From the IMG/VR virus record IMGVR_UViG_3300032562_000016: a stretch of DNA of 64,000 nt. One strand, 5' to 3'. Position numbers and translations under genes: made by a program. This DNA comes from a virus. Numbering within the stretch: the first letter of the stretch is position 1; every line of letters starts with the position of its first letter. Below the pieces are notes generated by a model, which did not search any database, had not been told where the DNA came from, and was given only the letters and a program-made list of their open reading frames with translations. Shown piece by piece: positions 6,460 to 53,907 of the stretch.

Positions 6460-6465
6460 TAGAGA

Positions 6466-7857: not shown

Positions 7858-7894
7858 ATTAAATCCTGTATTACGACACAGGTAAGTATAGCAT

Positions 7895-7922
7895 AAAAGA
7901 AAAGGGCCCCGAAGGGCCCTAG
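7895..7922 (-). terminator. Intrinsic terminator downstream of the capsid gene: GGGCCC-UUCG-GGGCCC hairpin plus UUUUCUUUUAU (minus strand).
   Basis: 6-bp GC stem with UUCG tetraloop at 7907-7922, immediately followed on the transcribed strand by a U-tract. This is the classic position for a strong terminator after a major capsid gene. Confidence 0.65.
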
Positions 7923-7945
7923 TTACGTTAAAAACTAATATTAAA

Positions 7946-8848: not shown

Positions 8849-8861
8849 TTTATGTTACTCC

Positions 8862-9698: not shown

Positions 9699-9717
9699 TT
9701 AAATCTCCAAAAAAAGT

Positions 9718-10170
9718 TTACTGACCTTTGCCAAAGCTAGTCGATGATCTACTTTCTTTAAAAATAGGCATACGACTGTCACTTTGACGCATTAAATTGT
9801 TATCTACTGCATCTGCGTTTGCTTGCGTTTGCTCAGCATAATATTTCATCTGCTGTGAATCAAACTCAATTGGACGCTTGCATAGTAACAATCCGCCAAT
9901 CTCGATGTTGTCTTTGAATCGACTTTCGGGATCGACTAACAGTGTGAATTTAGGCTGCTCTTCTATGCCCACCGGCTCATATCCCTCACGGAATCTCGTA
10001 CTGATATTCCTGGGATCTGCTTGATTTAGCATAGAAACCCGAATCCATTTATAACCGTACCCCGGCTGTTTGTCTGGCTCAGGAAGTAACTCAGGGGGCA
10101 TCCACTGTTTAGGACGCTCAGAGAGCGCACGAGTTGTCGTTTCACGGTCAAGTTGTTTTGCATTAGCCAT
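9718..10170 (-). CDS. hypothetical head-morphogenesis protein
   Basis: 150 aa, lies between the scaffold and the capsid genes. Confidence 0.35.
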   Translation of the reverse strand: MANAKQLDRETTTRALSERPKQWMPPELLPEPDKQPGYGYKWIRVSMLNQADPRNISTRFREGYEPVGIEEQPKFTLLVDPESRFKDNIEIGGLLLCKRPIEFDSQQMKYYAEQTQANADAVDNNLMRQSDSRMPIFKESRSSTSFGKGQ

Positions 10171-10173
10171 TTG

Positions 10174-11121: not shown

Positions 11122-11132
11122 GTCCGGCTCCT

Positions 11133-11534
11133 TTATTTACGTCTAATTCCTCTTGGATCTTCAACTACACCCTCAACAGAGTCGTCGTTGATCATCCTCA
11201 TCTCTCTACCATGAATAACTAATCTGCTACCTGCGTTGGGGCGCACAAGTATAAAGTCACCCTCTTTACACCACGGGCCAGATGGGAATCTAGCTTTGTC
11301 TTGGTAACAGTCAGGCCCTAAAGAAACTACAAATAGTACTGTTGTCAGTAACTCTTCGTAATGAACTGTAGTGTCTGCCTTAGCTATACCACTTTCAAAC
11401 TCCTTTTCCACTTCTGGTATGGCGCAGAGTATGCGATATCCAGAGGGCTTTGGTAGCTGTGTTGCCTTTTCTTCTGCGTTTTTATGAAGAATGGCATCAA
11501 GATCAACTGCCAAATTTAGGTTTATGTCACTCAT
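11133..11534 (-). CDS. hypothetical protein
   Basis: 133 aa. Confidence 0.4.
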   Translation of the reverse strand: MSDINLNLAVDLDAILHKNAEEKATQLPKPSGYRILCAIPEVEKEFESGIAKADTTVHYEELLTTVLFVVSLGPDCYQDKARFPSGPWCKEGDFILVRPNAGSRLVIHGREMRMINDDSVEGVVEDPRGIRRK

Positions 11535-11721
11535 CGTCCAAATGCTCCACTTTTTGTTTAAGGTCTATGATGATTCCACATGCAGCTTCAAGACCTCGCA
11601 ACTGGCCGCATATGTATTTATATTCTTCATAAGAAGTCGCATTACCCCTGGCCAATGCTTGTTCAAGCATGTCAATACGGTCTTTGTACTCCCTTAAAAG
11701 AAAGTCTAAATTCTGGTCCAT
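11527..11721 (-). CDS. hypothetical small protein
   Basis: 64 aa, overlaps its neighbours by a few nt. Confidence 0.35.
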   Translation of the reverse strand: MDQNLDFLLREYKDRIDMLEQALARGNATSYEEYKYICGQLRGLEAACGIIIDLKQKVEHLDDE

Positions 11722-14267
11722 TATTCACCTCCCTGTTGTGGTGTTTGTTGATTCATTTGAGCTTGTTGTATCTTTGAATCGTGCTCCATTCTTTTGTGTA
11801 AAGTCTGGGCTATCAAGCCTTCGCGGCTTTGATCTTTTTCATGCTCATGTTGAGCCAATGTTTTAACAGCATCTTTTCTGATATCTGCTGATCGGAGTTG
11901 TTTCTCCATCTTCATTTCAGCAGTAGCTTTAAGTGCGTTCACATCTATCTGCTTCATTTGCGTAGCTGTTTGCGCCGCAATTCTTGCCTTTTCAATCTCT
12001 TGCTGAGACTGTTTTAAAGCAATATCAGCTTGATCTTTTTGAGCCTTGCGTTGTTGCTCGGCTTGCTTAATAGCAATCTCTTGCTGTTGCATTTGAACCA
12101 ATGGATCTTGCTGTTGTTGCTGCGCTTGCTGCTGTGCAACTTGAGCTTGGTTAGACTGAAGCAACCTAGTAGCTGCTTGTGCAAGTATCGGCGCAAGTCT
12201 TGCCTCAACTTGTGGGTCAATTGGTATATCTTCACCGGACGCATCTGTCTGCGGCGGCAATGTCATACCAAGTTGTTTCTCAATCTCTATTCTGTACTGG
12301 AATCCTAAGTGCTCATTAACGTGAGCCATCATAGCGGCCTCTAATTGCTGAGCCATTGGGTTATTCTGTAGCAACTGCATGATCTTTGGATCTTGCATAG
12401 CCGCCATATGAACAGTAATGTGAGATGTATGATCCTGATATGCAAACGCTTTGACCGGCTTCATCATAAGAACGTTTTGGTTCTCTGTGATTGGATCCAT
12501 TGGGCGCATATCTTCAGGTAAAGGTATCAGCTTTGCCGCATTTTTAATGCTCAAAACTTCTAACATTTGCCTATATAAGAACGGCATATTGAATAATTGA
12601 GGCTGTTGCTGCGCTAATTGCATAACCGCCTGGTATTGAACGATCTTTTGAGCCATTGTTGAGGCATTTGGATCACTCACTGGGATCACATCTACGCTCT
12701 CATAATCAGACTTTTTAGCCCTTTTTCCGCCGACTTCGGGCTCATAATCGTAATCTTCAGGCGCATTTGCAGCAATAATTTCCTTTAAAAGCCTCAATTC
12801 TTGCTTTAAAGAGTAGTGAATACGAGCTTGAACCGCAGACATTACCTTAAGTGTGCGCTCTAATATAGCTAATGTTGTACCAACTGGGGCTGCCGCAGAC
12901 ATATCGCTGACCTGAAGATCTGCTGTATTAGCAAATCTACGTCCTTCTTCAACGATCTGATTGAGCAACGCCAGAAGAGTTTGGCTTGGCTCTTTATATG
13001 GCAACGGTACGATGTTGTCTTTAATAGATCCACTAGGTACGTCCACATCTCTGAACTCGCCCGGTGCAATTGGTGTATCGTCACCCTTAACGCGTAAACC
13101 TCTGGTCTTAAATCCGCCTTGTAAATTAGACAGTGATCCAGCATCAACCAATTGGCGAATAATAGAAGTTCCTGATTTTGCATATGCTCCAATTAAATGG
13201 ATCAAACCAAAACAATAGAAACCAAATCCAGGAATATATCCATAATGTACAAAGTGCTGGCGCTTTAAATATAAGCTATCGTTTTCTTTCCAGTTACGGC
13301 GAATAGCCAATACATTCTGAGTACCTTTCTCAATAGTAACTATATAAGGCAAACCAATTTCTGTATGGTTTCCGTGTTCATCAGTATGCTCAAATCCTTT
13401 TAAATTAAGATTTACACTGACTTCAAAGATCTTATATCTATCATCAGACGTAGCTCTAAAGCCAAGCTTTTCTGCGATTTTCTTTTCTACTTCATCCAAT
13501 ACATTGACTGGATCGCCTATATCTATATCTCGATATACCCCAGCATCTTGGAGTTTTCTAATTTCATTTTCTGTCTTGCGCATTACATGTGTAACACGCT
13601 CTGCATTTTCTAAGCTAGATGCGCCGTAAGGTACAACTACATCTTCAGCAGGTACATATAAAGATACTTGTCTTCCAAGTGTTGGATCTTCGTATACTTT
13701 CTTAAAAGCATTTCCAGCTAGACCCAAGCCCCACAACATTCTTTCTGTCTCAGGGCGATACTCAGGCATCTTTTCCGTCAACTCAAGATTCATGTCATCT
13801 TGAACGCGCTCGGCAGAGTCTTTTTTCTCTGGCGTTTCTTTTCCTATAACGTGAGTCTTAACAGGACCAGTCGCAGGAAAAATACTCATCATTGTTTCGG
13901 CTTGGAACTTAACCAAAGCTTCAGCTAATAATGGGTGATATACACCACATGCGCCTTCCCAGGGCTCTGATCTTTCTTCAATCTTTAAGCCCAATAATTC
14001 TAGGCCGTCTACATAAGTTTGCAGCCAATCTTTCCTGGCATCTATGTCATTACTAATATCTTCTATTAGTTCATCAGCAATAATTTTTAATTCTGATTCA
14101 TCAATTAGATCTGCTAAGTTTTCATAAAATCCGCCTGGTGGACCTGGATCTGGCTGATCCTCATCTTCTTCTCCTGGCAATTGAATTTCTATTTCTATCT
14201 CTGGCATCTGCTCCGCTAAAGCTTCAATACCTTGGGGTGCTTGTGCTAATGACTTATCTATTGACAT
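11721..14267 (-). CDS. portal protein candidate (848 aa) with Q-rich C-terminal tail
   Basis: Large protein immediately downstream of the TerL region in the canonical TerS-TerL-portal-scaffold-capsid order. C-terminal QQQAQQQQQ low-complexity tail. Plus-strand ORFs inside it (12014-12308, 12869-13218) are judged spurious. Confidence 0.55.
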   Translation of the reverse strand: MSIDKSLAQAPQGIEALAEQMPEIEIEIQLPGEEDEDQPDPGPPGGFYENLADLIDESELKIIADELIEDISNDIDARKDWLQTYVDGLELLGLKIEERSEPWEGACGVYHPLLAEALVKFQAETMMSIFPATGPVKTHVIGKETPEKKDSAERVQDDMNLELTEKMPEYRPETERMLWGLGLAGNAFKKVYEDPTLGRQVSLYVPAEDVVVPYGASSLENAERVTHVMRKTENEIRKLQDAGVYRDIDIGDPVNVLDEVEKKIAEKLGFRATSDDRYKIFEVSVNLNLKGFEHTDEHGNHTEIGLPYIVTIEKGTQNVLAIRRNWKENDSLYLKRQHFVHYGYIPGFGFYCFGLIHLIGAYAKSGTSIIRQLVDAGSLSNLQGGFKTRGLRVKGDDTPIAPGEFRDVDVPSGSIKDNIVPLPYKEPSQTLLALLNQIVEEGRRFANTADLQVSDMSAAAPVGTTLAILERTLKVMSAVQARIHYSLKQELRLLKEIIAANAPEDYDYEPEVGGKRAKKSDYESVDVIPVSDPNASTMAQKIVQYQAVMQLAQQQPQLFNMPFLYRQMLEVLSIKNAAKLIPLPEDMRPMDPITENQNVLMMKPVKAFAYQDHTSHITVHMAAMQDPKIMQLLQNNPMAQQLEAAMMAHVNEHLGFQYRIEIEKQLGMTLPPQTDASGEDIPIDPQVEARLAPILAQAATRLLQSNQAQVAQQQAQQQQQDPLVQMQQQEIAIKQAEQQRKAQKDQADIALKQSQQEIEKARIAAQTATQMKQIDVNALKATAEMKMEKQLRSADIRKDAVKTLAQHEHEKDQSREGLIAQTLHKRMEHDSKIQQAQMNQQTPQQGGE

Positions 14268-14268
14268 A

Positions 14269-14958
14269 TTAAACCTTAATAATAATTGGAGCGTGGCCTT
14301 CTTTTTTTGCCGTTAAAGAAATATTGGAGTCAAAGTCTACCTCCGGCATATTTAATCTCATTCTGATTTTATTTAATGTATATTTTCTATTTATATATTT
14401 ATATTCGGCGGTATAAAAATCATAAGCTACATTATCTGGAATATCAAAATAATCATTTTTCTTGTCTTCTGATTCTTCTCTAGTTAGATATGTATCGCCC
14501 CACTCTATGAGTCTTTCTGATGAAAATTGAGGCCTTGTCCTCCATAACAACATTTTTTTATCATTAGTGGCATTTTGCAATTCATAAAATTCATTATAAA
14601 AACGCTCGGCTAACTGAGCTTCAGCTTTAACAACGTCATCGTTTTCTACAGCATAAGCAAAAGTTGTATAAGTAAATCTATATATATCATGATCGCCAAT
14701 TTTGTTTATATGATTAAACGCATTGGGGGTCATGAATTTTTCAGCATCTTCGCGCTTTAATTCCATAAATGACCTGGGCTCACCATCCACACAATAAAAC
14801 ATTTCAGATAATTTTTTATCAAGCTCAAGCGCAGTAGAGGGAATCCAGTTTGGATTGTATTTATCGTCATGCTCTAAGATATTAAATTTTTTAATATCTG
14901 TAGCAGCCAATGCTGTACCACCTAAAGCTGTTGCGCCTAAAAAAAATCTGCGTTTCAT
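14269..14958 (-). CDS. Tat-signal secreted protein (moron) between TerL and portal
   Basis: N-terminus MKRRFFLGATALGGTALAA has a twin-arginine motif (RRxFL) followed by a hydrophobic h-region and AxA. The gene is markedly AT-richer than its neighbours. Confidence 0.5.
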   Translation of the reverse strand: MKRRFFLGATALGGTALAATDIKKFNILEHDDKYNPNWIPSTALELDKKLSEMFYCVDGEPRSFMELKREDAEKFMTPNAFNHINKIGDHDIYRFTYTTFAYAVENDDVVKAEAQLAERFYNEFYELQNATNDKKMLLWRTRPQFSSERLIEWGDTYLTREESEDKKNDYFDIPDNVAYDFYTAEYKYINRKYTLNKIRMRLNMPEVDFDSNISLTAKKEGHAPIIIKV

Positions 14959-27185: not shown

Positions 27186-27971
27186 TTAAGCCTTTTTAAG
27201 CTGACGTTGATACCTCGCTATCGTCTTCTTAAGCTGAGCATTCTCCGACTGGAATGTATCCCTGCTCTTTGTTACGGCCTTGAGCTCGATCTTTAATTGC
27301 TTAATCTCATCTCTTAACTCTTGGATTGTTTCTTCTGCAAGCTTTGGATCTGGTGCGGATACGGTTGCCAGTTGATCGGATAGCTTCTCGTTTTGCTCCA
27401 TTAAATAATCTATTGTTTCTTGATCTTTGTTATGGACTGGGGCTACTTCTACCTTTGGCTCTACTTTGGTTTCTTTGGTAGACCTGGTGCGCTCGTACTC
27501 TTGCCCATCTTTGGTCTTAACCGTTATGCTCTTAGGTGCTGTTCCGGCTTTGTTCCTGATCTTGCTGACATACGGCTGAGATACGCCACAATGCCTAGCT
27601 ATCTCTGTATCTGTCCAGTCTGACCACTCAAAATCTTCCACCATCTTCTGGGCGTTCTTGCACCGCTCGGCGCGAGTAGGGGGCTTACCGTGAGCATTAT
27701 TGGCATTCATGCCCTTTAGCTCTGCATCCCTCTGAGTTCCAGTTAAGACCTCTGCGTTTATGTATTCCTCTCCGTTCCTAAGTGAAGCATGGATACGGTG
27801 AAATCCATCTGCTGGCCATACATCTGTTCCATCGTGGAAAACAATAATAGGAGGAAATATAGTACCGTCTGCCATTGCTTCGGCATATTGGGTAACTGTC
27901 TCCTGGTCAAGTGCTCGGGATTGTGTGTTGCCATCCATGCGGATAGCTGAAATTAGTACGTCTTTAATCAT
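27186..27971 (-). CDS. ParB-like nuclease domain protein with C-terminal coiled coil
   Basis: N-terminus IFPPIIVFHDGTDVWPADGFHRIHAS matches the ParB/Srx fold signature; HTH-like middle; coiled-coil tail. Confidence 0.65.
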   Translation of the reverse strand: MIKDVLISAIRMDGNTQSRALDQETVTQYAEAMADGTIFPPIIVFHDGTDVWPADGFHRIHASLRNGEEYINAEVLTGTQRDAELKGMNANNAHGKPPTRAERCKNAQKMVEDFEWSDWTDTEIARHCGVSQPYVSKIRNKAGTAPKSITVKTKDGQEYERTRSTKETKVEPKVEVAPVHNKDQETIDYLMEQNEKLSDQLATVSAPDPKLAEETIQELRDEIKQLKIELKAVTKSRDTFQSENAQLKKTIARYQRQLKKA

Positions 27972-39231: not shown

Positions 39232-39275
39232 GGGGACAATTATAACGGTAATAATGGTCCCACCATAAAGTATTA
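39232..39275. repeat. Copy B of the perfect 44-bp inverted repeat (partner at 16830-16873). It overlaps the stop codon of the 2125-aa gene.
   Basis: Exact reverse-complement identity to 16830-16873, verified base by base. Confidence 0.9.
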
Positions 39276-42200
39276 CTTTTTCATAGACAGCCTAATACTT
39301 TCTGCTCTCTGTGCTAGATCAGATATCAATCCTTTAAGTCTTAAGACCTCATTTGCCTTCTGTTCTCCGGTCAAAGATGTATTGTTTGGATCTTGAATAT
39401 GATTCAACTGCTTACGAATGTTAGCCATATTCTTAGACGTTGCATCATACATTTTCTCAAGCCGGATCAGATCGCCCTTCTCTTCTAATATCTGCTGAAC
39501 CTTAGAAGAATCTCCAATCTCAGCATAATGCCTCATATCTGCATATGCTTCGCTGATAGCCTGGTTATTCTGATAGAAATCAGTAACGTAAGTAGATTGA
39601 ACGCTAGGTAGTTTTTGCACAAAACCTAAGCTCATCCGCTTTTGCCAATCCGCATCCGCATAAACACCATTATTAAACGGCATCATTGCATATTGAGATG
39701 TAGTCGCTATAGTTCCACCAAGCCATCCTAGATAGCTTTTAATCATGTAATCTATCTGTACTGGAGACATTTCTGCCTTGCCGCCGGAAACAGCTCCTAG
39801 GGCCTTGGAAACGCCTCCTAGACCCTTTGCCAAAGCACTGGTTTCATTGGTCATACGTTCTTGCTTAGATAACCGCTCCATGCCCGCAGTTTCAATCGGC
39901 GCATTGGTAAAGGAATCTTTATTAGCATAGACGTCAATTAAAGGCTTAAAGAACTGAGGAGTAGGATCCATAGAGAAAGTCTGGAACACCATTCGTCCAA
40001 TACTCTCTCCAAAGCGTTTTCCTTCTACGTCTTTATCTACGATCTGCTCCAAAGACCGCTCGGCTAAAGTACCAATAGATCCAAATTCAAACGGCTTAGG
40101 AATGCGAATAACTTCCTGGGTTCCAGGTATCTTAAACCACCAGAAGAAATCACGATCCCACTGCTCGCGCTTCTTAAAGTCATCATCATCTTTGAATGCC
40201 ATGTACAAAGCCATAGACGCTAAAGATATTGCGCCGGCAACAGTCATAAAGGACTGAGCCTTTTGTTTTTCATCTTGAGTAAGCGGATTACCATCTGGTC
40301 TATAGAACACCCTTACCGTAGGAATAACACCGTCTCTACCAAGCTTATACAAGCCCTGCAAACGAGCATTCAAAAACGGAACGATCTGAGACAAATACCT
40401 GATAGCCCCACTAGATCCTTGCATGGAGAAGTCCATCAAATCGCGAGCGTGGTAGCTGGCCTCTAAGTGGCTCATGCCTTCACTTTTTAACTTTTCATAT
40501 AAAGCTATGCGGTTAATATTCTCAGATCTATTTCCTATGTCTTCATAGTTATGCCAGATCTTAGTTAGCCAGAACTTAGCCTTTTCCTTGGTATCAACAA
40601 TATTATCTCCATTGACACCGCGGGCCAATAGCTTCTTAATTACTTCACTTCTATTACCTTCTAATGTAGTGCCGTAATTAAATACACCGCCACCGGCGAG
40701 AGCGGCTATGTAAACGGGCGAATCTTTATGAGAAGATGCCCATCCATCCATTACGTTCTTAACAAAGTTATTATTAAGGCCAGATAGACCTGCCGCCTGG
40801 ATCGAATCCTTAATCAAGTTAGATGCCTTGAAAGCGGGAGATAGCGTTACACCAAACCGTAGCGCATTCTTAAACCCGCGCATAACATCAAGAACTTTAG
40901 ATTGTGGTCCTAAATATGTAACAGCACTGAGAGACTCAAAAAGGAACGGATCATTGATATGAAAATGAGTTTCATGTCCTTCAATATTTACCTTGACCGT
41001 TTCGCGCCCAGCAGTTGTATAGCTGAGCATCTTTTTATTCCCATCCTCATCCTTACCTTCCTGAACCAGATCTCCATTGCCTACAATCTTGCCAGTCTTT
41101 TCATTGTGCACTGCACCATCTTTCCAGAAAAATCCTTGCTTAAGATTTGGAGTAGCAGCGCCTAGTCCAGAAGCATCTTGAATGGTTGTCAAAGACGCTT
41201 GATTCTTCATAGAGGCGGAAAGGATATGGCTCCAGTTTCTAAGCGTATTCTCCATAAGATCGGAGAACGGCTTTTCGCCTCCTCCTTTAAGCATCTTAGA
41301 GAATTGCTGGTTGGTCATCCTGGAGGCGGTACGGATTGATTCAATCTTTCCATCTTCCATTACCTTATAAAAAGGAACGAAGAAGGCATCATTAGAAAAT
41401 CTTTCGTATGCTTCTTTGTCTATTAAATTTTGCTTGAGCGCAACATCTAAAACAGACTTATTAAGCGCCATCATATCCTTACGAGCTTGCTCATAAACTC
41501 CGTCTTTGCCGTTTTTATCTTTTCCAATTCTTGGTCTTCCGTTAATCTCGCCTTTAACGTACTCATCTTTCTTGGATACAAGATTGGCCAAGGCAGGAGT
41601 GCGCTTATGCTCTGGCAATAATGCCTCTCTATTAAGAGCCATCCACTGCTGGAACCTATCCACTTCTTTACCAAGAGGAGCTAAAGCCTGGATCATCCCT
41701 TTAAAATTATCTCCTTGCTTAATGGTTAGCGCTCCGTCTTCTAGCGCGATATGGCCATTAAACATCATGCCATGCAACCCTCCGTCAACAGATGATGCTA
41801 GACGAGCTTGCATATAACCCATAGGAGAGAAATCTTTAATAGCGCGGTACTGATCAACAGTCTTTTGCGCAATCATCTTCCAGAAGTTATCTTTGTTCTC
41901 TGCAATACGGTCTATGATTGTCTTGCTTCTAGGATGGAATATTTTTTCTGCCTCATCAACAGTAGAAGAAGGCATCCCCTCATAAGCACTTTTATCCGAA
42001 GGTGCGCGTTTTTGTAAAACGTCCTGAGCTTTATTTACTGCCGCCTGAGCCATTTCTGGAACAGACTTCATAGCAAACATCTCTTGCGCTTTCTTAGAGA
42101 ATAGCGACTGCTGAACCATTTTCCCGGTAGACGGCTTGCCTAAAGCATAGCCCTCCTTAACCATTCCATTTTGTAAAGGAATTAGAGTGTCATCCAGTAA

Positions 42201-45200
42201 TGATTCAGTTGTTCTAACCAGTCTATCTAATGCTGTTTCAAAGTTCTTAGCAATGCCTAGCACCTGGCGAATCAAACCAATAATGTGAGAAAAGACTGTT
42301 TTATTTCCTACCTTAATATCAGATAAGAATTTCTGCATTCCTTTATCCGTCATACCCCAGGAGATAAGCTCATCAGGATCTGACAAAGCATTGTTCATGC
42401 GCTTGTAGTAATTCTTTAAAACATCAGGTAAATCAGCGCCTTTATTCTTTGCTATTTCCTCGTTAAATTTATTAACAACAGTCTCATGCAAGCTTCTAAT
42501 CTCTTTTACCAATGGATCTGTACTGGCCAAAAATCTCATCTGACCGCGAGTAGCAGCGTGGAGCAGTTCATGTAGCACCACCGTATAGTCCATACCAGAA
42601 GGGAAGCCATTTTGATTGGCAAATACTGGAGCACCATTTAGCTTAATGGAAATAAGCGTAGGCTGTCCTTGGGCGCCCCAAACAAAACTTGTTAATCCCT
42701 TAGCAGACCTTAGATCCCCAGTCCTGGAGTTACCGCTTGCGACTTCAAAGTTATATACTACTCCGGCCTTTTGCATAGACTGGAGGCGGGTTAAAACTTT
42801 ATTGGCTACAAACCTAGCAAAGCTATTTGGCGCGTTGGCAATAGCCCATTGAGCAGCCTGAATGAATGTTTTACCAGTAAGCTCTTTCTGAATCCTAGCT
42901 TCTTCTGGATTATTTGCCGGCTTATTGCTTACATCTTTTGATTGTAAAGTCTCAGGTTTATTGCCAAGATAATCCTTTATAGCTGAAGTCAAAAACTGAT
43001 GATACATATCCTCAGCTTCAGCTTGAGTTTCTCCTCTGGTAAAGGCTTCCTCATGTATTCTTCTTGTATCAATACCTATTTGCTTGGCAAAGCTTATAAG
43101 GTTATCTAGTAACTCATTTTCTAATTCGTCTTCATATATGGGCTTACCATTTAAATGGGCAATGAGTAGACTTTTTTGATAGTCTTTATACTCCTCATCT
43201 CCTTTTTGATTTAATGATTCCTCTATATTTTCTGGTTTTTGTCTATCGTTTTTAATTGCTTGTCTAGCATCTTCGTGATCACTAGGATCTAAAATGTATC
43301 CAGACTCATGCAAAGCTGTAGCGGCTTTATCCATCCGCATCCCTTTTTCGGGATTATTTTGCCCTGCGTATAACCATCCAGCACCAACTTTAATATTAGG
43401 CACATCCTCATGCCCCATCTCAGTTTTCTCATCTGGATGTAGTCCACCTTGCGATGCTATAAAACTCCTAGCACCCATCTTTTCGCCGGAAGCAGTGACT
43501 TTACCTAGGTTGCGATTATTCTTTTTCTCAGAATCTAACTGAGCTTGTGTCTTTGGAGTAAGAACAAATTCATTGCCAATCGGCAATATTCGCATTAATG
43601 GTTGCAATTTCTTCGCTTGAATAGCATCTTCTTTATGCTTAAAGCGAGTTGCTCCCTCTGACAATAATCCAGTAATGGGATTATTTAAATCGTCATATCC
43701 AACAATGCCTATGTTTTCAGGATGCTCAGATGATTTAATTTCTGGCTTAGGCTTTGTAACCGTTTCTTTTGGCATGGTCCCGTAAACTTGGTCCCATTGC
43801 TCATTCTCCATCATCTTTTGTCTATCTTCCCACTTTTGCATCCACCTATCTTTTGATGAAGCAGTCTGTATAGCTTTCTTTTTCTCATCAGGAGACATGG
43901 CATCCCAAGCTTGTTGAGCTGTAGGAGGAGGCGGTTGCATAGGAGCATTTTCAACAACAGGAGCTCCAATGGCTTGTAAAGCTCTATTGCGATCTAATTT
44001 GTCCTTAATAGGATCATCGCTAAACTTTGTTTTATTAATCTGAGCTATAGCCTTTTTTTGCCTGGTATCTTGCTCTACTTGTTGCGCTGCAACATTAGTT
44101 CTTGCTTGTCCCAATAATTGATTATTTATATTTTGCTGGCCAAGTAATTGGCTCATTGGTGTATTTGTCAATGATTGACCAAGCTGAGGAGCAACCGGCG
44201 CTTCTGGAGCGGCTTGTTCGGGTTGCATTGCAGCCACTTGTTGCGGTTGTAAAGCAGCTAATTCTTTGTTTTGAATTAACTGATTCATCATTGGATCAGT
44301 GTGATATTGGGTTTGTTTAACTTGTTTTATTTGTTCTTGTCTTTGAGCTTCTGCTTCAGCGGCGGCCTGAGCTTGTTGTTGACGAGCAGCATCTAAAAAT
44401 CCCATTTGATTTGCAGGACCGGCAAACCCAGGAAGATTACGGAACCTATCGGATTGATCCCCTTCAAACATAGGAGCATAAGAACTAGGCTGTTCTTCTT
44501 GTTCTGGCTCTTGAATTGCTTGCGCTTGTTTAATAGGCGCAGCATTCATTCTTGTATTAACACCGCCTACGCCGCCAGGAACTATGCCCATAGCAAACGC
44601 GCCACCAGCAGTATTAATATACTCATTGATAGCGTTCTTATCTGCTAACGGTAACCCAGCACCATAACGCTCAGCAGCTTGTTGGACGAGCTCAGGAGGA
44701 ACTTCTTTAGCACCAGTGGCTAACATTCCTTTACCAATATCCAAAAATAAATTGCGGGTAGATTTAGATCCTATTCCTTCAAGTCCACCTAGACCAATCT
44801 TTTCAGCAGCAAAGTCGGCAAGAGAATGAACCGCAACAGCAGGAGCTAACTTAGAAAAGTCAATCTTATCTGTATCGTATCCGGCTTCCTGGGCAGCTCT
44901 ACTTGTTGGTTCACCAATACCATGAAATAAAGCTTGGCTGGCTACTCCAGCATTCTGTCCAAAAGTAGATGCTCCTGAACTAGCGTACTTAGCTAATTCT
45001 TCTTTTGCCAAAGTTTGCTTAGCTTTATCTTCTACAAAGGTCTGGGCCGCAATCTTAGCTGCATCTTTAGTAGCTCCATTCTTAAGCTCATTCTCAAGAA
45101 CTTCCTTTGCTGCATTCTTAATCCCTTGCTTAACCAATGACTTGTTTAATATAGGAGCCATTGCGCCTTCTAGCGTACCTGCTCCAGGGGCTATAGCTGT

Positions 45201-45650
45201 TCCAAGAGCTCCGCCGGCCAAAGCAAATGCGCCAGTCTCGGCCAAGTTAGATACGCCGCTACCAATCTGATAAGGAAGCCAATCTGTGAGAACCGTACTA
45301 ATCCCTTTGTGATAAGCATTTTCTAAATCATCAGATTCTTTAGCATTCTTTTCCTGGGATTCGTTTGCTTCTTTAAGGTTCTTAACCCCTTTGCCTAGCA
45401 AATAGTCAGATACTACGCCCTTACCTAAGACATGCTTAGCACCTGCCCCTAGTAGGGTTTGCAATCCGCCCAACACTTCTTGGTCTTGAGATCCAATAGA
45501 AGTAAGGCCACGCATAAAGTCGCCTTGACCTTCTTTTGCGTTACCAAAATTTGCTTGAGCATAAGATAAAACTTGGTCTTCTGTAGCTCCCTCTGGAGCG
45601 TTAACGGTATATACCGTACCAGACGGATCTTTAACTTTAAAAGACGGCAT
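39273..45650 (-). CDS. giant virion protein (2125 aa): putative ejected/internal polyvalent protein with zincin-like HExxH motif and a Q/A-rich linker
   Basis: Single uninterrupted ORF. Motif VVLHELLHAATRG (HExxH) near residue 1000. Long QQQAQAAAEAEAQ low-complexity segment. Located next to the SLT-domain protein in the late operon. Several short plus-strand ORFs inside it are spurious. Confidence 0.6.
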   Translation of the reverse strand: MPSFKVKDPSGTVYTVNAPEGATEDQVLSYAQANFGNAKEGQGDFMRGLTSIGSQDQEVLGGLQTLLGAGAKHVLGKGVVSDYLLGKGVKNLKEANESQEKNAKESDDLENAYHKGISTVLTDWLPYQIGSGVSNLAETGAFALAGGALGTAIAPGAGTLEGAMAPILNKSLVKQGIKNAAKEVLENELKNGATKDAAKIAAQTFVEDKAKQTLAKEELAKYASSGASTFGQNAGVASQALFHGIGEPTSRAAQEAGYDTDKIDFSKLAPAVAVHSLADFAAEKIGLGGLEGIGSKSTRNLFLDIGKGMLATGAKEVPPELVQQAAERYGAGLPLADKNAINEYINTAGGAFAMGIVPGGVGGVNTRMNAAPIKQAQAIQEPEQEEQPSSYAPMFEGDQSDRFRNLPGFAGPANQMGFLDAARQQQAQAAAEAEAQRQEQIKQVKQTQYHTDPMMNQLIQNKELAALQPQQVAAMQPEQAAPEAPVAPQLGQSLTNTPMSQLLGQQNINNQLLGQARTNVAAQQVEQDTRQKKAIAQINKTKFSDDPIKDKLDRNRALQAIGAPVVENAPMQPPPPTAQQAWDAMSPDEKKKAIQTASSKDRWMQKWEDRQKMMENEQWDQVYGTMPKETVTKPKPEIKSSEHPENIGIVGYDDLNNPITGLLSEGATRFKHKEDAIQAKKLQPLMRILPIGNEFVLTPKTQAQLDSEKKNNRNLGKVTASGEKMGARSFIASQGGLHPDEKTEMGHEDVPNIKVGAGWLYAGQNNPEKGMRMDKAATALHESGYILDPSDHEDARQAIKNDRQKPENIEESLNQKGDEEYKDYQKSLLIAHLNGKPIYEDELENELLDNLISFAKQIGIDTRRIHEEAFTRGETQAEAEDMYHQFLTSAIKDYLGNKPETLQSKDVSNKPANNPEEARIQKELTGKTFIQAAQWAIANAPNSFARFVANKVLTRLQSMQKAGVVYNFEVASGNSRTGDLRSAKGLTSFVWGAQGQPTLISIKLNGAPVFANQNGFPSGMDYTVVLHELLHAATRGQMRFLASTDPLVKEIRSLHETVVNKFNEEIAKNKGADLPDVLKNYYKRMNNALSDPDELISWGMTDKGMQKFLSDIKVGNKTVFSHIIGLIRQVLGIAKNFETALDRLVRTTESLLDDTLIPLQNGMVKEGYALGKPSTGKMVQQSLFSKKAQEMFAMKSVPEMAQAAVNKAQDVLQKRAPSDKSAYEGMPSSTVDEAEKIFHPRSKTIIDRIAENKDNFWKMIAQKTVDQYRAIKDFSPMGYMQARLASSVDGGLHGMMFNGHIALEDGALTIKQGDNFKGMIQALAPLGKEVDRFQQWMALNREALLPEHKRTPALANLVSKKDEYVKGEINGRPRIGKDKNGKDGVYEQARKDMMALNKSVLDVALKQNLIDKEAYERFSNDAFFVPFYKVMEDGKIESIRTASRMTNQQFSKMLKGGGEKPFSDLMENTLRNWSHILSASMKNQASLTTIQDASGLGAATPNLKQGFFWKDGAVHNEKTGKIVGNGDLVQEGKDEDGNKKMLSYTTAGRETVKVNIEGHETHFHINDPFLFESLSAVTYLGPQSKVLDVMRGFKNALRFGVTLSPAFKASNLIKDSIQAAGLSGLNNNFVKNVMDGWASSHKDSPVYIAALAGGGVFNYGTTLEGNRSEVIKKLLARGVNGDNIVDTKEKAKFWLTKIWHNYEDIGNRSENINRIALYEKLKSEGMSHLEASYHARDLMDFSMQGSSGAIRYLSQIVPFLNARLQGLYKLGRDGVIPTVRVFYRPDGNPLTQDEKQKAQSFMTVAGAISLASMALYMAFKDDDDFKKREQWDRDFFWWFKIPGTQEVIRIPKPFEFGSIGTLAERSLEQIVDKDVEGKRFGESIGRMVFQTFSMDPTPQFFKPLIDVYANKDSFTNAPIETAGMERLSKQERMTNETSALAKGLGGVSKALGAVSGGKAEMSPVQIDYMIKSYLGWLGGTIATTSQYAMMPFNNGVYADADWQKRMSLGFVQKLPSVQSTYVTDFYQNNQAISEAYADMRHYAEIGDSSKVQQILEEKGDLIRLEKMYDATSKNMANIRKQLNHIQDPNNTSLTGEQKANEVLRLKGLISDLAQRAESIRLSMKK

Positions 45651-45662
45651 TAAATGCTCCTA

Positions 45663-47990
45663 TTATTTTTCGATGCTCCAACCTGCGCCGCCTGGAGTCG
45701 GTTTTTCCTGGTCCACGTCTGGATACATGCCAAATCTTTGCTTATGCGCTTCTCTAAATGGAGTATCTTTAGTGTGCATTTTATACAGTTCTTCAGCGAT
45801 GATCTTATCTTTCTGATCTTGCGTCATTAATGGATCTTTGGCCCTAGCCAATGCCCTTGTTGTAAAAAGCTTCTCACGCATATTCATGGTGTCATCAGCT
45901 TCTTTCTTTTTTCTTTCCTCTAATCCTTGCTGTCTTAGATCTAAAGCATTTTGAGCGGCATTGTGTTGCTCAAGGATTTTTGCGTAACCTAAGTTGTTTA
46001 CAAGTTCATGCTGATATTTTTTTTCCTCGGCTTGTTGATTTTGTAAATCACGCAAGCTACTATATCTAGCAATGCCTAACTTACCGGTAAGAATAGCATT
46101 CTCTTCTGCGGCGTTTTCTTTGTTGGCATTCATAGCGTAAGAAATACCAGGCAGAGCGCCTTCTCCAATATCTCCAGCAAGGGTGTGCACTTCACCAGGC
46201 TTAACTGTTCCAGCTTTACCCATCATTCCAAGACCTGCGCTAAGCAAAGACATGTAAAAGTCTTTTTGCTTCTTATCTTGCAAAGCTCCTTCGCGCTTAG
46301 CCAAATAATCATTAAAGCTATCAAATGGATTTGGAGCTGCTTTTTCCACGGCAGGAGCGGCAACGGGTCCTCTTACATAAGAAGGATTAAGTTGATCTTG
46401 TGCATTAGCTGTTTCATCATATCCGCCTAAAGCATTAGATGCAGCTTCAGTTGCAGAAGGAGCAGAAGTAATCAACCTAGAATCATTAGCCATAGTTGGT
46501 CTTCCGCGAGCAATATCAGCGGCAGCAGGTGCAACAGCTACATCAGGAGCAGCAACTTGTGGATGCCTAGGGTTATAAGATCCTGGATGTGAACTAAAGA
46601 AGCTTGCCAAACCAGATAACGCATCTTGCTGTTTTTTTGGATAAACCGGCGTATGGGTATCCACTGGAGCAGCTACTGGCGTATTTCTATTTATAGCATC
46701 TCTATATAACGTAGATTTTGCTAACTCTGGCAAAGACGAGTAATCGTAATTAGGCGTTTCTATTGCCCGGTTAGGCATTAAAGTTTGAGCGGCAGGAGCG
46801 GCGTTACTAACTGGATATGTAGCAGGAGGGTTTTTAACTGCATTTAAAGCATCCGCATAAGGAGTTCCTGTATCCATTCCTGGAATAGTTGTGTAATCCA
46901 TATCGCCTACAAGACTACTATCTGTTCCATTAAAGTGAGCTATTCCACCTTGAGCCAAGCCAACAGTATAGTTCTGGGTTTCTTTAGGTACTGCTCTTGG
47001 ATCTGCTCCATTAGCTAACCATTTGTCTACATTACCAGGACCCCAGTTATAAGCCATAGCAGCAAGCTTAGGATCTTTGTATTTGTTTTCAAGTTTAGCC
47101 AAATATTTAACGCCGCCTCCAATATTTTGCTCAGTATCAAAAGGATCTGTAATTCCCAATTCTTTCTGGGTTCCTTTCATAATCTGCATAATGCCTTCTG
47201 CTCCGGCGGGAGATACAGCATTAACTCTATCCTTTAATCCACCGGTTTCTTTATTGGCAACATGTAATGCAAGCTTCGGATTAGCGTTATATTCTTTAGC
47301 CTTTTCCAATACTATTTTGTCAATATCTTCATTCTTTGTAGGTCTAGCAACTCTAGTTTCTTCCTTGTGCGCTACAACTGGCTGAGCCATTCCAGGCCCT
47401 TGATAGGCTTGGGTTTGCCCCATTTGCTCCGTCATCATAGGAGAGATAGATTCAATACCAGGACTCTTGGCATTCATACCGCCGGCAACAGCATCTTCAA
47501 ACTCTTGATCCTCGTTGTCTGCCTCATCATCCTCTTCATCATCAGGCTTCTCTGATAAATACTGTCTAGCCATTTCCTCCGGATCTGGAACTCCGCCCAT
47601 AGCAAAGCCCATGATGCCGCCAGTAGCAGCTTGAGTAGGTAGATTAGACTGAGCAGCAGCAATACCAGGAGAAGGTTGCTGGGCTTGTTGTGGGGTTTGA
47701 GGAGCTTGTGGAGCTGGCTGTGGAACTTGAGGAGCTTGAGCTTGAGCCAATGTTTGCTGAGCAATAGGAGGCTGATTGAGTAACCCAGACTTCATAGCCT
47801 GAGCACTCTTCATCTCATTCATCTTTGCTGTAATCTTAGAAACCAAAGGTACGCCAAGATAGCCGTACAAAGAACCATCTTGTACAGATTGAGCTATGTG
47901 CTGTTGAAGAGATTGAGCCTGAGAAGGGTCTTTGATATTATCAATTAGCTGACTGTAATGGTTAGCTATTTGGTCTTGAATATCGTTCAT
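45663..47990 (-). CDS. internal virion protein with lytic transglycosylase (SLT) domain
   Basis: AGAEGIMQIMKGTQKELGITDPFDTEQNIGGGVKYLAKL matches the SLT catalytic region (E...GLMQI). The flanking sequence is low-complexity Q/P/A-rich. Confidence 0.65.
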   Translation of the reverse strand: MNDIQDQIANHYSQLIDNIKDPSQAQSLQQHIAQSVQDGSLYGYLGVPLVSKITAKMNEMKSAQAMKSGLLNQPPIAQQTLAQAQAPQVPQPAPQAPQTPQQAQQPSPGIAAAQSNLPTQAATGGIMGFAMGGVPDPEEMARQYLSEKPDDEEDDEADNEDQEFEDAVAGGMNAKSPGIESISPMMTEQMGQTQAYQGPGMAQPVVAHKEETRVARPTKNEDIDKIVLEKAKEYNANPKLALHVANKETGGLKDRVNAVSPAGAEGIMQIMKGTQKELGITDPFDTEQNIGGGVKYLAKLENKYKDPKLAAMAYNWGPGNVDKWLANGADPRAVPKETQNYTVGLAQGGIAHFNGTDSSLVGDMDYTTIPGMDTGTPYADALNAVKNPPATYPVSNAAPAAQTLMPNRAIETPNYDYSSLPELAKSTLYRDAINRNTPVAAPVDTHTPVYPKKQQDALSGLASFFSSHPGSYNPRHPQVAAPDVAVAPAAADIARGRPTMANDSRLITSAPSATEAASNALGGYDETANAQDQLNPSYVRGPVAAPAVEKAAPNPFDSFNDYLAKREGALQDKKQKDFYMSLLSAGLGMMGKAGTVKPGEVHTLAGDIGEGALPGISYAMNANKENAAEENAILTGKLGIARYSSLRDLQNQQAEEKKYQHELVNNLGYAKILEQHNAAQNALDLRQQGLEERKKKEADDTMNMREKLFTTRALARAKDPLMTQDQKDKIIAEELYKMHTKDTPFREAHKQRFGMYPDVDQEKPTPGGAGWSIEK

Positions 47991-49123
47991 TTTGCACCTT
48001 TCATGGCGTTATATAACCCAAGGCTAACAATTCCTCCGGCTGCATATGATTTAACTTTTCCGCCTTTTGCCTGATTTACTGGGGCAGATCCTGAGTTGGT
48101 TCCAGTACCATTAATATTAATTGTTGGAGAGCTTGGATTAGCCAATCCATAGATACCGGCTCCAGCAGTACCAAGTCCCGCAAGTTGAGAAAAAGTATTG
48201 GGCGCAGCAGCTTGCTGAGTAGTCGTTATGTCGGATATAGGCAACCCAGACGTTAAGTTCTTGAGCTGACCAAGTTGCGTCATAGGATACTGCTGAGCAG
48301 TAGCATAATTCTGCATTGCCTGGTTGATGATGTTTTGCTGTTGCTGTTGCTGTTGTCCGCCAACTGTTCCTTGTTGGTTAAGGATATTTTGCTGATTAGC
48401 CAATCCTTGAGTTCCCAAAGCACCGAGTTGACCTGCATTTTGAGCAGCTTGATTAGCAGCTTGTAAAGCAAACGTACCGCTTTGGTTGTATTGGTTTTGA
48501 GCAGCGCCAAACGCATTGTTATATGCGTTACCAATCAACTGTTGCTGAGCTAAGTTCTGGTTCTGAGAGTTAAGCGCATTCATTACCGCTTCTCTGCTTC
48601 CGCCAAAAGCACCGGCTTGTGTAGCAGAACCTTGCTCTTGTGCAGCTTGTTGACCATATTGCTGATTTAACAATTGCAAACTAGGAGCAAGTGACTGTTG
48701 AAGATACGGATTCATGTATCCACCAACTTGATTTTGAAAATCTTGTGGATTAGCAGATGCGCCTAGTTGGTTAGCAGTGTTGATCGAATTTATTGTCTGA
48801 CCAGATGCAGCACCAGTTTGCCAAGGATTTTGTAAACTAGCTACGCCTTGCTGTTGTTGCGCCTGAAGCGGTGTAAATCCAGCAACTGACGACTGAGCAG
48901 CGGCTTGTGAACTTGGATCCATGCCGTACTGTCCGCCAGCAGGTGTATATGATCCATAAGGGTTATAAGGGTTTATACCAGTAATCTGTCCAGATGGATT
49001 TGTATTAAATACCTGGCTTTGAGCGGCGCCAAGAATATCAGTGATATACGGCTGAGCCCAAGGCGATAGACTTGAATATTGATTTGATTGTGCGGTTTGA
49101 CCGCTTCCTCCGCCACCACTCAT
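47987..49123 (-). CDS. Q/N/G-rich low-complexity virion protein
   Basis: 378 aa with over 30% Q+N and long QQQQ runs. Confidence 0.45.
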   Translation of the reverse strand: MSGGGGSGQTAQSNQYSSLSPWAQPYITDILGAAQSQVFNTNPSGQITGINPYNPYGSYTPAGGQYGMDPSSQAAAQSSVAGFTPLQAQQQQGVASLQNPWQTGAASGQTINSINTANQLGASANPQDFQNQVGGYMNPYLQQSLAPSLQLLNQQYGQQAAQEQGSATQAGAFGGSREAVMNALNSQNQNLAQQQLIGNAYNNAFGAAQNQYNQSGTFALQAANQAAQNAGQLGALGTQGLANQQNILNQQGTVGGQQQQQQQNIINQAMQNYATAQQYPMTQLGQLKNLTSGLPISDITTTQQAAAPNTFSQLAGLGTAGAGIYGLANPSSPTININGTGTNSGSAPVNQAKGGKVKSYAAGGIVSLGLYNAMKGAK

Positions 49124-51124: not shown

Positions 51125-51463
51125 TTAAGATGTTCTTACTTTAAGCACGTTATCTGCGCTTGTATCTACATAAATATCGCCAACTCTTAACAAACCATTT
51201 GCGTAATCCGTCTGCGTAGGTAAGCTAATAACTTGTCCAGTACCTGAAGTCCCAGGTTGGCTAAAATTTAAAGCAGAAATAACCTGAGCAACCGTTGTTG
51301 AGTTCGGCGCGGTTACCCTTTGCGTAGCCATAGCAGATGGACCCGGACTATCTAACTGCGTAAAGTAAAGCCGTAAAGCATTTAACATCGAGTTAATATA
51401 GGCGGGATCATATTCCGCAGGGGCAATCGGTATGTTGGGTTGGTGTGTGGTTCCAGTTGACAT
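51125..51463 (-). CDS. hypothetical structural protein
   Basis: 112 aa. Confidence 0.4.
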   Translation of the reverse strand: MSTGTTHQPNIPIAPAEYDPAYINSMLNALRLYFTQLDSPGPSAMATQRVTAPNSTTVAQVISALNFSQPGTSGTGQVISLPTQTDYANGLLRVGDIYVDTSADNVLKVRTS

Positions 51464-53907
51464 TACCTTCTCCCATCCGGTCTAATATCAAACCTAGGAA
51501 CACCGAGCTGCCACGCTGTTCCAATTGTATTGGACTCAATTCTAAACGCCATTTGACGTCCTCTGAGCCTTGTATAAACTTGACCAGTAAACTGTTGTAT
51601 GTTGTACGCATTTGTGGCTGCGTAATTGTTTGCACTGACAACCTGTGGAGTAGCCGCCGCGCCGTAAGCAGTTCCAGAATTCTCTCTTGGCTTAACCGTC
51701 ATCGTCACATAAGGTTCAGCAGGTGCTCCAGCCTGGTTTGAATTAGACCCGTTAAAGTTAACGTCCGGTAATATTCTCCAAACAAACCCAAAGTTCTGGC
51801 CTTCTGCAATCTCAAAGTCGGATGATTGAATATAAGCATCTATTGGCAAAACGGCAGCAGTAGACAGATCATCTGTACCGCTTTCATGGTTTAACAATAA
51901 ACCATTTCCGTTGGTTGTCAATACTGTAATCTGGCTATTAGAAGACCCAACAACCTGGCTAGGAGATATCGTATAAGTGCCAACTCCGCCTGTTCCGGTT
52001 CCAAGAGCCGTAATGGTTGTATTTGGAGCTATTCCAGGTCCTGTTAACGTTTGTCCAACAGCTAAAGTACCAAGTGTAATAGCGGTAACATGTAATGTAG
52101 TTGCAGATATATACCCAGTAAAAATACAGTTTGTGTTGTAAGAAGCGGCAACGGGATAGAACTCAATACCGTTCTGTATCCATGCGGTTCTGGACATTTC
52201 CCCGTAATACCAAATATTCTCTAAGTAGTTATAGACTACATAAGAGTCAACAATCGTATTTGGATTTGCGGATGTGCCTGTACCGTTTGGCCCGGCAATA
52301 GAACAATAGAACCACCAAATCTCATTAAACTGCTCATTAGCACCGGCAAATACTTGATAAGACTGCTGTTGGTTTAGCTGCTCAAATACATATTGACGCA
52401 CTGCACAATCAAGCGTAGATACCGTACCTGTATACCGATAGAACTTATCCTGCCCCATCCAATAGGTCGTATTGTTAATCGTCACCATGCAATTGGGAGA
52501 CATAACAGATATATTGTCCATCATGATCTGGAAGCCCCAAACATATGGGGCGCCAATATACTGCATAGAATAAAGAGCAGAATCAGTCCAAACTAATATC
52601 TCCTGGCGGGTCGTTCTGGCTCCAACAATATAAGAACCGTTGCTTAATATGTAATCACCTGCCTGGTTTGTTACGCTAGGCGTCCATTGCTGAGGATTAG
52701 CCTGGTCTGACCAGCGAACGCACATGGGATTAAATGTAGAAGACCCATACGGATTAGCTCCAAAAGCAATAACAAACTGCTGAATGGAAGACGCTATGAC
52801 CTGATACGTTTGAGTTGGTACGTTAGAAGCGCCAGACAAAGAAGACAATGGGGTAGCCCTGGTTCCTACTCCGTTTGCGTCTTGCCAATAATATATAGCA
52901 CCGCCTCTAGGGGCAATAACTAAATCTTGACCGTAGTTATCGTTAGACCAAAGCCTGAGCTGAGATCCAACGCCCGCTCCGGCGTAAGACGTCCCCCATC
53001 CACGAGTACCTGTTTGCTCTTGTACAACTACAGAAGATCCGCCACCGCTACCCGTAGAAGTAGCAGTTAATGTGCTAGAAATTGTGGATGTAGAAATCGT
53101 ATATGTGTTTGTGCCGGTAGAAGTAATCTGATATGCAAAATTATTAAGCACTGATGCCGGTATGCCGTTAGTCGCTGTAGCCCCTGTGAAGATAACAAAA
53201 GTACCAGTCGTTAAACCGTGAGCAGTCTGGGTAACCGTAATAGTCCCGCTTGTATTTGTAGTTGCAAATGGGTTAGATCCTAAAGATACGCTTAAAGGCT
53301 GAGAAGCTCCGCCCCAAGGACCTGCGCCCCATCCGTTACTGACCGTATATACATCAAGACCTGCTGGGACTTCATACCCCGCAGATACCGATCCGCCGCC
53401 AGTAGCACTTGAAGATGCAGTAGTTGACGCAGTAATCGTATATGTATTAGCACTTGGGTTAATAGATACGACTTGATATTCACCACTTATGGTTAATCCG
53501 CCAACAGCAGAGCCACCGCTAAACACAACATAGTCCCCAACACTAGGATCATAGCTTCCATCCGTTACAGTAACCGTTGCAGAACCGGAAGTAGTTGTAA
53601 AAGGATTGGTTAGCGAATCAGACTGGATAAAAGGAGTTATATCGTTATAAGTACCGCCCTGGTAGATGTAATACTTAATCTGGGTTCCTACGCCTATTAG
53701 ATTATTTCCTGCAAGGTCAACCCAATTCCAAAGCGCGCGGGCATGGCCTAAGTACTGATTAGGACTAACCTGGCTCCATCCGCCTATCTTTTCTGGAAAC
53801 CCAGAGCGGAACCGAATGTTATTACAGTCGAACCATCCACCAGTGTTGGCAAAATCTGTGCCTTCACGGTTAACTCCTGGTCTGAACTGTAATTTCTGTA
53901 AGGGCAT
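51463..53907 (-). CDS. large tail structural protein (814 aa)
   Basis: G/S/T-rich beta-rich protein upstream of the fibre cluster. The function (tube, tubular or baseplate) is not resolvable from sequence alone. Confidence 0.5.

Follow-up and report, generated by a model that had tools for sequence, protein, structure and literature searches.

A giant LPD38-class polyvalent protein with a zincin-like HExxH module, encoded by an uncultured phage

The stretch of DNA analysed here, 64,000 nucleotides of the IMG/VR virus record IMGVR_UViG_3300032562_000016 (the window), encodes on its minus strand a protein of 2125 amino acids (aa), referred to below as the giant, beside a separate 775-aa protein with an SLT domain (Table 1). 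The giant is an LPD38-class phage polyvalent protein, a divergent new member of that class from an uncultured phage, and the alignments indicate that the HELLH motif at its centre is not a chance occurrence, H1027, E1028, H1031 and E1094 being invariant in 160 homologues. It appears rather probable that the giant is made late, packed in the capsid and ejected with the DNA, and that its zincin module is an active endopeptidase that, once ejected, cuts a protein substrate. Polyvalent proteins with LPD38 and zincin domains have been known as a class since 2017, and one member was later detected in virions; the clade shared with other ejection proteins, the replacement of other payloads by the module and the 880-aa C-terminal unit described below are modest refinements of that known class.

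Giants packaged in the capsid are the route by which many short-tailed phages deliver activities before phage gene expression. With conserved end modules and a single enzymatic domain, the locus offers a clean minimal case that is convenient for finding the target of the zincin.

The HExxH module and its occurrence in other ejection proteins

A sequence-only reading of the window had singled out a central HELLH motif as the mark of a metallopeptidase. HELLH is indeed the sole HExxH in the giant (aa 1027-1031), where 0.034 occurrences would be expected from composition. Searching 1.84 billion representative proteins with a profile of the surrounding module returned 746 homologues at E <= 0.001, 138 of them at E <= 1e-30, and most of the 746 are embedded in proteins of 1300-5000 aa. 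The 160-sequence alignment was drawn from these homologues, and in it conservation reaches at least 90% at G985, G1019, T1034, W1098 and Q1106. In a 30-sequence alignment reaching down to ~28% identity, the only invariant columns are H1027, E1028, H1031, E1094 and Q1106. No Pfam or NCBIfam model covers the module, and it therefore goes unannotated at present.

An AlphaFold2 model of aa 916-1160 (mean pLDDT 93, pTM 0.91) consists, in order, of N-terminal helices, three beta-strands, a long helix bearing HELLH (model residues 107-125, pLDDT ~96-98) and a later helix with E1094 (177-186). Zincins are defined by this succession of a sheet, an HExxH helix and a Glu helix (PMC5512222). In the model the motif lies on an alpha-helix, a beta-sheet precedes this active-site helix and the overall fold is zincin-like; a motif lacking a zincin fold around it, the outcome that the earlier reading had named as fatal to its proposal, is thus not what the model shows. 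Its structural neighbours are protein endopeptidases, including lethal factor, PPEP, PepO/neprilysin, MtfA, CapP, botulinum light chain, SprT and thermolysin, while peptidoglycan peptidases of the LAS/M15/M23 types are not among them. The zincin assignment also agrees with a published HHpred link between lethal factor and the HExxH region of the virion RNA polymerase (vRNAP) of phage N4 (PMC5512222). With anthrax lethal factor and Pro-Pro endopeptidases (MEROPS M34) and with other gluzincins, the module has in common the HExxH and a downstream Glu, the predicted third ligand. However, sequence identity to these enzymes is 8-13%, the peptidase models of Pfam and NCBIfam do not match the module, and its extra N-terminal helices and C-terminal helical hairpin set it apart from them; membership of M34 is not claimed.

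Searches with the module led to ejection proteins of other phages. In a tblastn search with the giant, 119 Pseudomonas phage records matched, all through aa ~926-1230. The 1337-aa gp16-like 'DNA ejectosome component' of LUZ19 matches at aa 352-557 (BLASTP E 5e-16), with VLHEAVHAAT opposite VLHELLHAAT of the giant. Among PDB sequences, the module profile recovered the 1337-aa 'internal virion protein' 9sfn_G (E 4e-40), the 'tetrameric ejection protein' gp48 of PhiM1 (8vb2, E 4e-6), a 1239-aa 'gp10' (23sg_S, E 3.5e-4) and, at E 0.025, the vRNAP chain 11fw_A, in which the HExxH and an E-x-x-x-W-G-L motif are in register. E1094 aligns with the Glu of 'NEFMAWGL' in the N4-like vRNAP chain and with that of 'HEFIS' in PhiM1 gp48. 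The gp16-type proteins (LUZ19/Ar-KM gp43, 9sfn_G; Pectobacterium phage PhiM1 gp48, 8vb2) are, like the giant as proposed here, internal virion proteins, and they are ejected last; in contrast to the giant, they are ~1250-1340 aa long, lack LPD38 and the N-terminal module, and have no detectable similarity to it beyond the zincin module. Only residues 74-332 of Ar-KM gp43 are modelled, with the HExxH region outside (preprint 10.64898/2026.05.18.726046), and the motif goes unmentioned in the PhiM1 and Ar-KM structural papers. A zincin clade common to LPD38 giants and the gp16-type ejection proteins of phiKMV/PhiM1-like phages goes slightly beyond the literature found.

The 3500-aa vRNAP of N4 (gp50), which is ejected into the host, aligns with the module at aa 2184-2319, around HELVH 2228, and the correspondence includes the E-x-x-x-W-G-L motif. 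This segment is the C1 subdomain, in which the HExxH was noted by the 2026 N4 structure paper. Both proteins have an N-terminal domain, a low-complexity linker of ~100-250 residues, a central cargo, an HExxH domain and a large helical C-terminal domain; in gp50 these are described as a lipid-binding N-terminal domain, a ~100-residue linker, the polymerase, C1 with its HExxH and a helical C2 of ~1100 residues without structural relatives (PMC13434306). However, gp50 matches four Pfam vRNAP families and not LPD38, whereas the giant matches none of the vRNAP families. Homology between the C-terminal module of the giant and C2 was considered and rejected at the sensitivity of an hhalign comparison with 20 C2 homologues (probability 0.1%). 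The parallel between the two proteins is one of layout. In the N-terminal module of the giant, the motif E-x-P-P-E-x-x-Q...G-x-G is nearly invariant (aa ~303-357, window ~44580-44740, minus strand) and aligns weakly with gp50 aa 384-435 over ~50 residues (8 bits, E 7e-5 in a one-sequence search), which could reflect a shared membrane- or partner-binding motif, or chance.

The likeness to T7 gp16 (internal virion protein D, with an N-terminal SLT domain) is a functional analogy only: in both cases a transglycosylase is tied to a large ejected protein whose gene closes the set for internal proteins, but T7 gp16 fuses the SLT domain that is here encoded by a gene of its own. Homology to gp16-type ejection proteins over the full length was not found: with the phiKMV/PhiM1 type the zincin module alone is shared, and the comparison with T7 gp16 itself covered the zincin and N-terminal modules. 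The N-terminal module profile gave weak, insignificant matches to T7 gp16 (iE 0.048 and 0.43). T7 gp16 has an HERLH (aa 559-563) roughly where a copy of the module would be expected if the extra N-terminal SLT domain is allowed for. As a degenerate copy of the module it was rejected, with no match by hmmsearch with filters off and an hhalign probability of 0.3%, and on this evidence the motif is probably coincidental.

Architecture, relatives and evidence for packaging

The giant is encoded by one intact open reading frame (ORF) with an ATG start. The coordinates given in the sequence-only reading are correct, and the Q/A-rich linker that it described is real, with 20 Gln and 18 Ala per 100 residues in aa 401-500 and 15 Gln and 14 Ala in aa 501-600. 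Its neighbouring transglycosylase domain was recovered by Pfam as SLT. BLAST coverage along the giant resolves three conserved parts (aa ~40-390, ~916-1160 and ~1246-2125) between poorly conserved stretches. The last of these is the most widely shared and contains LPD38, so that the 'long conserved-looking C-terminal region' of that reading is borne out as well. The reading had further likened the giant to polyvalent proteins that bring several enzymes into the host. Its class assignment is supported by LPD38 at 121 bits and by relatives that carry payload domains. In the giant itself the zincin module is the sole recognisable enzymatic domain, with aa 641-915 and the N-terminal module unassigned, and an ART or other payload domain is lacking.

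LPD38 is listed among the domains restricted to phage-type polyvalent proteins, an architecture that was given this name by Iyer et al. in 2017 (PMC5512222). The genomic context is that of the class, the giant lying among late and virion genes of a phage with portal and terminase and its relatives being placed alike; both of the relatives' contigs that were inspected are prophage late regions, in one of which the gene adjoins an SU10-type adaptor gene. The PHROG family that the giant matches, phrog_18222, comprises proteins of ~2100 aa to which PHROGs assigns no function. A search of 5.8 billion proteins found 193 relatives, nearly all of them 1700-3460 aa long and nearly all with LPD38, and the LPD38 of the C-terminal module is carried by nearly all of the 120 relatives analysed. 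The profile of the N-terminal module matches 91 of these 120 and has no match in Pfam or the PDB. The centres between these shared end modules hold ART-PolyVal, RadC/JAB, InPase, DdrB-ParB, LPD1, LPD5, DUF7178 or Zeta-toxin domains, as judged from Pfam scans of three representative relatives alongside protein-search annotations. Records of further relatives name them DNA methylase, DarB-like antirestriction protein or RelA/SpoT, after the payload domain that they carry.

The unit of conservation is the entire 880-aa C-terminal module, of which the 165-aa LPD38 stretch is only a part; no relatives of the module were detected among solved structures. It was found in Achromobacter phage CF418P1, Escherichia phages PTXU04 and Pondi and Aeromonas phage phiARM81mr, as well as in Vibrio (VvAW1), Shewanella and Thalassomonas phages, in Bacillus phage Page and its relatives, and in Pelagibacter (HTVC034P) and cyanobacterial phages. 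Of these, CF418P1, PTXU04, phiARM81mr, Page, HTVC034P and VvAW1 are presumably short-tailed. The 2684-aa homologue in CF418P1 (locus 6454-14508) has only the C-terminal module in common with the giant and contains no HExxH; its annotation as 'putative portal' is almost certainly wrong. Synteny with CF418P1 was looked for and rejected, as none of the neighbouring genes match.

The giant as a single sequence matched no PDB sequence and no NCBIfam model. Pfam searches of five segments at E 10 gave LPD38 only, apart from sub-threshold RavZ_C and DUF1340 hits regarded as noise, and the variable stretch of aa ~641-915 had no Pfam match even at that threshold. The sole strongly hydrophobic segment (aa 1800-1819) is visible in the family consensus just before LPD38, with a conserved DDDD motif after it, and could be a helix that interacts with membranes. 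Long low-complexity linkers rich in Gln, Ala and Pro occur in both the giant and the SLT protein (aa ~70-130 of the latter). They are similar in kind to the 100-residue linker described for N4 gp50, and linkers of this sort may be a common feature of proteins that thread a narrow tail channel.

That the giant is packaged is a reasonable inference from its position in the late operon and from proteomics of Stx phage phi24B, whose homologous gp47 is abundant in purified virions, is absent from the external model obtained by cryo-electron microscopy, and has been proposed as an encapsidated ejection protein (preprint 10.64898/2026.04.10.717836). The family profile aligns the full C-terminal module with aa 1867-2787 of gp47 (iE 5.8e-42). 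Like the giant, gp47 (2807-2811 aa) is of giant size, is encoded by the last gene of its late block and has LPD38 near its C-terminus, within the alignable ~880-aa module. However, identity over that module is ~21% (BLASTP), similarity in the N-terminal module is weak, and the centre of gp47 holds LPD5, LPD1 and MuF_C by Pfam and no detectable zincin module, whereas the giant has the zincin and none of those three. The gp47 of phi24B (HM208303, 24149-32572) contains two HExxH motifs (aa 1297 and 1564), neither within a detectable copy of the module. HEIIH at aa 1564 was rejected as a zincin, being marginal with the 30-sequence profile and scoring negatively with the 160-sequence profile. The MuF_C domain of gp47 is called a metallopeptidase in the phi24B preprint (10.64898/2026.04.10.717836), while MuF-C is a predicted BECR-fold RNase according to Iyer et al. 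(PMC5512222).

Proposed role of the module and competing explanations

In the reading favoured here, the giant would be a late product that is loaded into the capsid and, along with the DNA, leaves through the short tail to enter the host. The 775-aa SLT protein, a putative peptidoglycan-opening internal virion protein, would open the peptidoglycan; the giant would follow, with its conserved end modules serving packaging, exit and envelope anchoring; and the zincin module, as a catalytically competent endopeptidase, would then cut a protein substrate. Packaging, ejection, the order of events, catalytic activity and substrate are all things that we infer. Because the catalytic base and all three putative ligands are fully conserved, the zincin is likely to be an active enzyme. 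With low confidence, its likeliest substrate would be a host or ejectosome protein, corresponding to a payload or effector role, and self-cleavage would come second. Counter-defence is one of several possible roles of the giant.

The distribution of the module among the 120 relatives bears on these roles. Other Pfam payload domains accompany it in 4 of 60 module-bearing relatives and occur in 26 of the 60 relatives without it (Fisher p 4e-6), a count that ignores kinship, so that closely related sequences inflate it. Judged from these sequences, the module in LPD38 giants tends to replace other payloads rather than to accompany them, a pattern that goes slightly beyond the literature found and that is easier to reconcile with an effector, or with a role linked to ejection, than with mere payload processing. 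A protease acting as effector or at an ejection step would also fit because the module occupies the 'payload slot' at the centre, because the folds closest to it belong to protein endopeptidases, and because the gp16-type carriers have no other payload.

The neglect of kinship in that count weighs against the favoured reading, and so do several other observations. Some family members, such as the CF418P1 giant, are without any HExxH, and the zincin is therefore unnecessary for the core function of the family. Packaging and ejection lean on one preprint, concerning a homologue as distant as phi24B gp47. The N4 vRNAP, with its related module, was reported to be packaged unprocessed (PMC5512222), and proteolysis is unreported in the structural papers found on N4, PhiM1 and Ar-KM; the module could accordingly be non-proteolytic.

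A serious minority possibility is that the zincin is an autoprocessing peptidase, cutting the giant or partner ejection proteins after packaging or ejection. Such a function is a published hypothesis for the MPTase/zincin domains of polyvalent proteins, and P1 DdrB is processed before packaging (PMC5512222). The position of the module between two long linker-separated blocks is in keeping with it, as is a fragmentary homologue, P0004, in which ART-PolyVal comes directly after the module. However, an autoprocessing peptidase should accompany other payloads, and it does so in only the 4 carriers counted above, the remaining 56 having no other recognised payload to release; the module is also kept in gp16-type ejection proteins without a known payload, and the unprocessed state of packaged N4 vRNAP speaks against it too. 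The latter observation suits instead a pseudo-peptidase, structural or regulatory, that has kept its metal site without cutting and that, for instance, aids encapsidation or refolding after tail passage. The N4 vRNAP region with the related module was reported to be required for encapsidation (PMC5512222), the C-terminal domain of the N4 protein is an allosteric brake on the polymerase (PMC13434306), and the silence of the structural papers on proteolysis by N4 gp50, PhiM1 gp48 and Ar-KM gp43 points the same way. A pseudo-peptidase is nevertheless unlikely: E1028, both His residues and E1094 are invariant in the 160 sequences, while pseudo-enzymes usually lose at least the catalytic base, and the absence of the module from some family members altogether is a poor fit to a structural keystone.

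It is very improbable that the zincin works with the SLT protein on the cell wall, cutting the cross-links of the peptidoglycan to let the ejection conduit reach the inner membrane, even though the two genes adjoin and the phi24B authors suggest a cell-wall peptidase for the metallopeptidase annotation of their protein (preprint 10.64898/2026.04.10.717836). The phi24B domain concerned is Pfam MuF_C, in a protein without a detectable copy of the zincin module; phiKMV-like phages place wall-cutting on a different ejection protein from the one that carries the module (preprint 10.64898/2026.05.18.726046); and the neighbours of the model are protein endopeptidases, with the LAS/M15/M23 types absent. 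Least credible of all is that the giant is an external tail component, such as a fibre, a spike or a tape-measure-like ruler, and not an internal ejected protein. Its gene does lie in the late structural block near tail-fibre genes, and one relative is recorded as 'putative portal' and another as 'putative virion structural protein'. However, no fibre, spike or tape-measure family in Pfam or PHROG matches it, the phi24B homologue is abundant in virions yet missing from the resolved external structure (preprint 10.64898/2026.04.10.717836), and the ART, RadC, InPase, Zeta toxin and ParB-like domains of its relatives make sense only inside the host cell.

The favoured reading of the giant as an ejected protein with an endopeptidase that acts after ejection can be extended, speculatively and with little confidence, to the other carriers. 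The ~245-residue HExxH...E module might be a catalytic part common to the last-ejected proteins, those reaching membrane or cytoplasm, of three ejection systems of short-tailed phages that are unrelated in other respects: LPD38 giants, phiKMV/PhiM1 gp16-type proteins and N4-like vRNAPs. It would then be a protease that is needed for a shared genome-delivery step and that structural papers on these machines have overlooked so far. If so, candidates for that step would be the cutting of a host inner-membrane or defence protein, or the dismantling of the ejection channel so that the membrane reseals. Therapeutic Pseudomonas phages of the phiKMV-like group carry the module, with all four active-site residues, in their 'enigmatic' gp16-type ejection proteins, and a related form is present in N4 vRNAP; because the module is common to these systems and to the LPD38 giants, a substrate from one would probably inform the others.

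The locus and its genomic setting

The genome is that of a ~68-kb phage known only from metagenomes, of which the window covers most. A protein search found the identical 2125-aa protein on 23 contigs from metagenomes, the longest of 68 kb. Megablast searches of 50,697 phage records, with the locus and a 14-kb part of the late block as queries, yielded no nucleotide match, indicating a phage without a close cultured relative. The late block lies on the minus strand, which within the window also encodes the large terminase subunit and the portal, and it runs across the window ends. Its order is tail-fibre and spike genes, endolysin and spanin; an 814-aa capsid-like protein; small proteins; the 378-aa protein; the SLT protein; and, as the final gene, the giant, which converges on plus-strand genes ending at 39196. 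A simple scan found no terminator 3' of the giant gene. No tape-measure, tail-tube or sheath families were found among the ORFs scanned in the window, which fits a short-tailed phage, short of proof.

Table 1. Features of the giant gene and its upstream neighbours (window positions)
Feature	Position	Strand	Basis
Giant gene, 2125 aa, LPD38-class	39273..45650	-	ORF list, ATG start, uninterrupted; phrog_18222 E 1.4e-157
C-terminal conserved module, aa 1246-2125, largely alpha-helical, plus one small beta subdomain; family core	39276..41915	-	
Pfam LPD38 (PF18857), aa 1822-1986	39693..40187	-	E 7.6e-35, 121.1 bits against a cut-off of 27
Sole strongly hydrophobic segment, aa 1800-1819, SFMTVAGAISLASMALYMAF	40194..40253	-	Kyte-Doolittle mean 1.72 over 19 residues
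Gluzincin-like metallopeptidase module, aa 916-1160	42171..42905	-	
E1094 codon, predicted third zinc ligand, HExxH + 63 residues	42369..42371	-	100% conserved in 160 homologues; model helix 177-186
HELLH codons; H1027/E1028/H1031, predicted zinc ligands and catalytic base	42558..42572	-	100% conserved in 160 homologues; model helix 107-125
Variable central stretch, aa ~641-915	42906..43730	-	Common to only ~25 of 272 collected relatives; no invariant columns
Low-complexity Q/A/P-rich linker, aa ~391-640	43731..44480	-	Composition by 100-aa blocks; few homologues span it
N-terminal conserved module, aa ~40-390, Gly/Ala-rich; E316, E320 and G362 (nearly) invariant	44481..45533	-	Family alignment
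Shine-Dalgarno AGGAG, 6 nt upstream of the ATG of the giant	45657..45661	-	Sequence; directly after the TAA of the SLT gene
SLT protein, 775 aa, upstream of the giant, with its own Q/A/P-rich linker	45663..47990	-	PHROG lytic tail protein/internal virion protein with endolysin domain; PDB Slt70-type transglycosylases
SLT catalytic domain, aa 228-327	47010..47309	-	Pfam PF01464, E 3.4e-20, 72.2 bits against a cut-off of 21.3
378-aa protein upstream of the SLT gene	47987..49123	-	Weak match to 'DNA ejection protein' PHROG phrog_4287, E 2.4e-10

Several other genes of the window were noted in passing. The 814-aa protein (51463-53907, minus strand) matches PDB 9nwi_Y, 'capsid and scaffold protein', at aa 361-571 (E 4e-18) and has a weak ubiquitin-E1 FCCH-like match at aa 221-276; it may be a major capsid protein carrying a long extra N-terminal part. 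A separate 300-aa ORF (7946-8848) matches major-head and protease PHROGs. In the head and packaging block, ORFs 1783-2445, 5002-5418 and 7267-7857, all on the minus strand, match homing-endonuclease families (GIY-YIG-type, endonuclease VII/HNH-type), which points to the insertion of several selfish endonucleases into the structural module. An ORF for a GroES-like co-chaperonin (11133-11534, minus strand) adjoins the portal gene, and a ParB-like protein (27186-27971, minus strand) is encoded in the replication region, beside a helicase and a primase.

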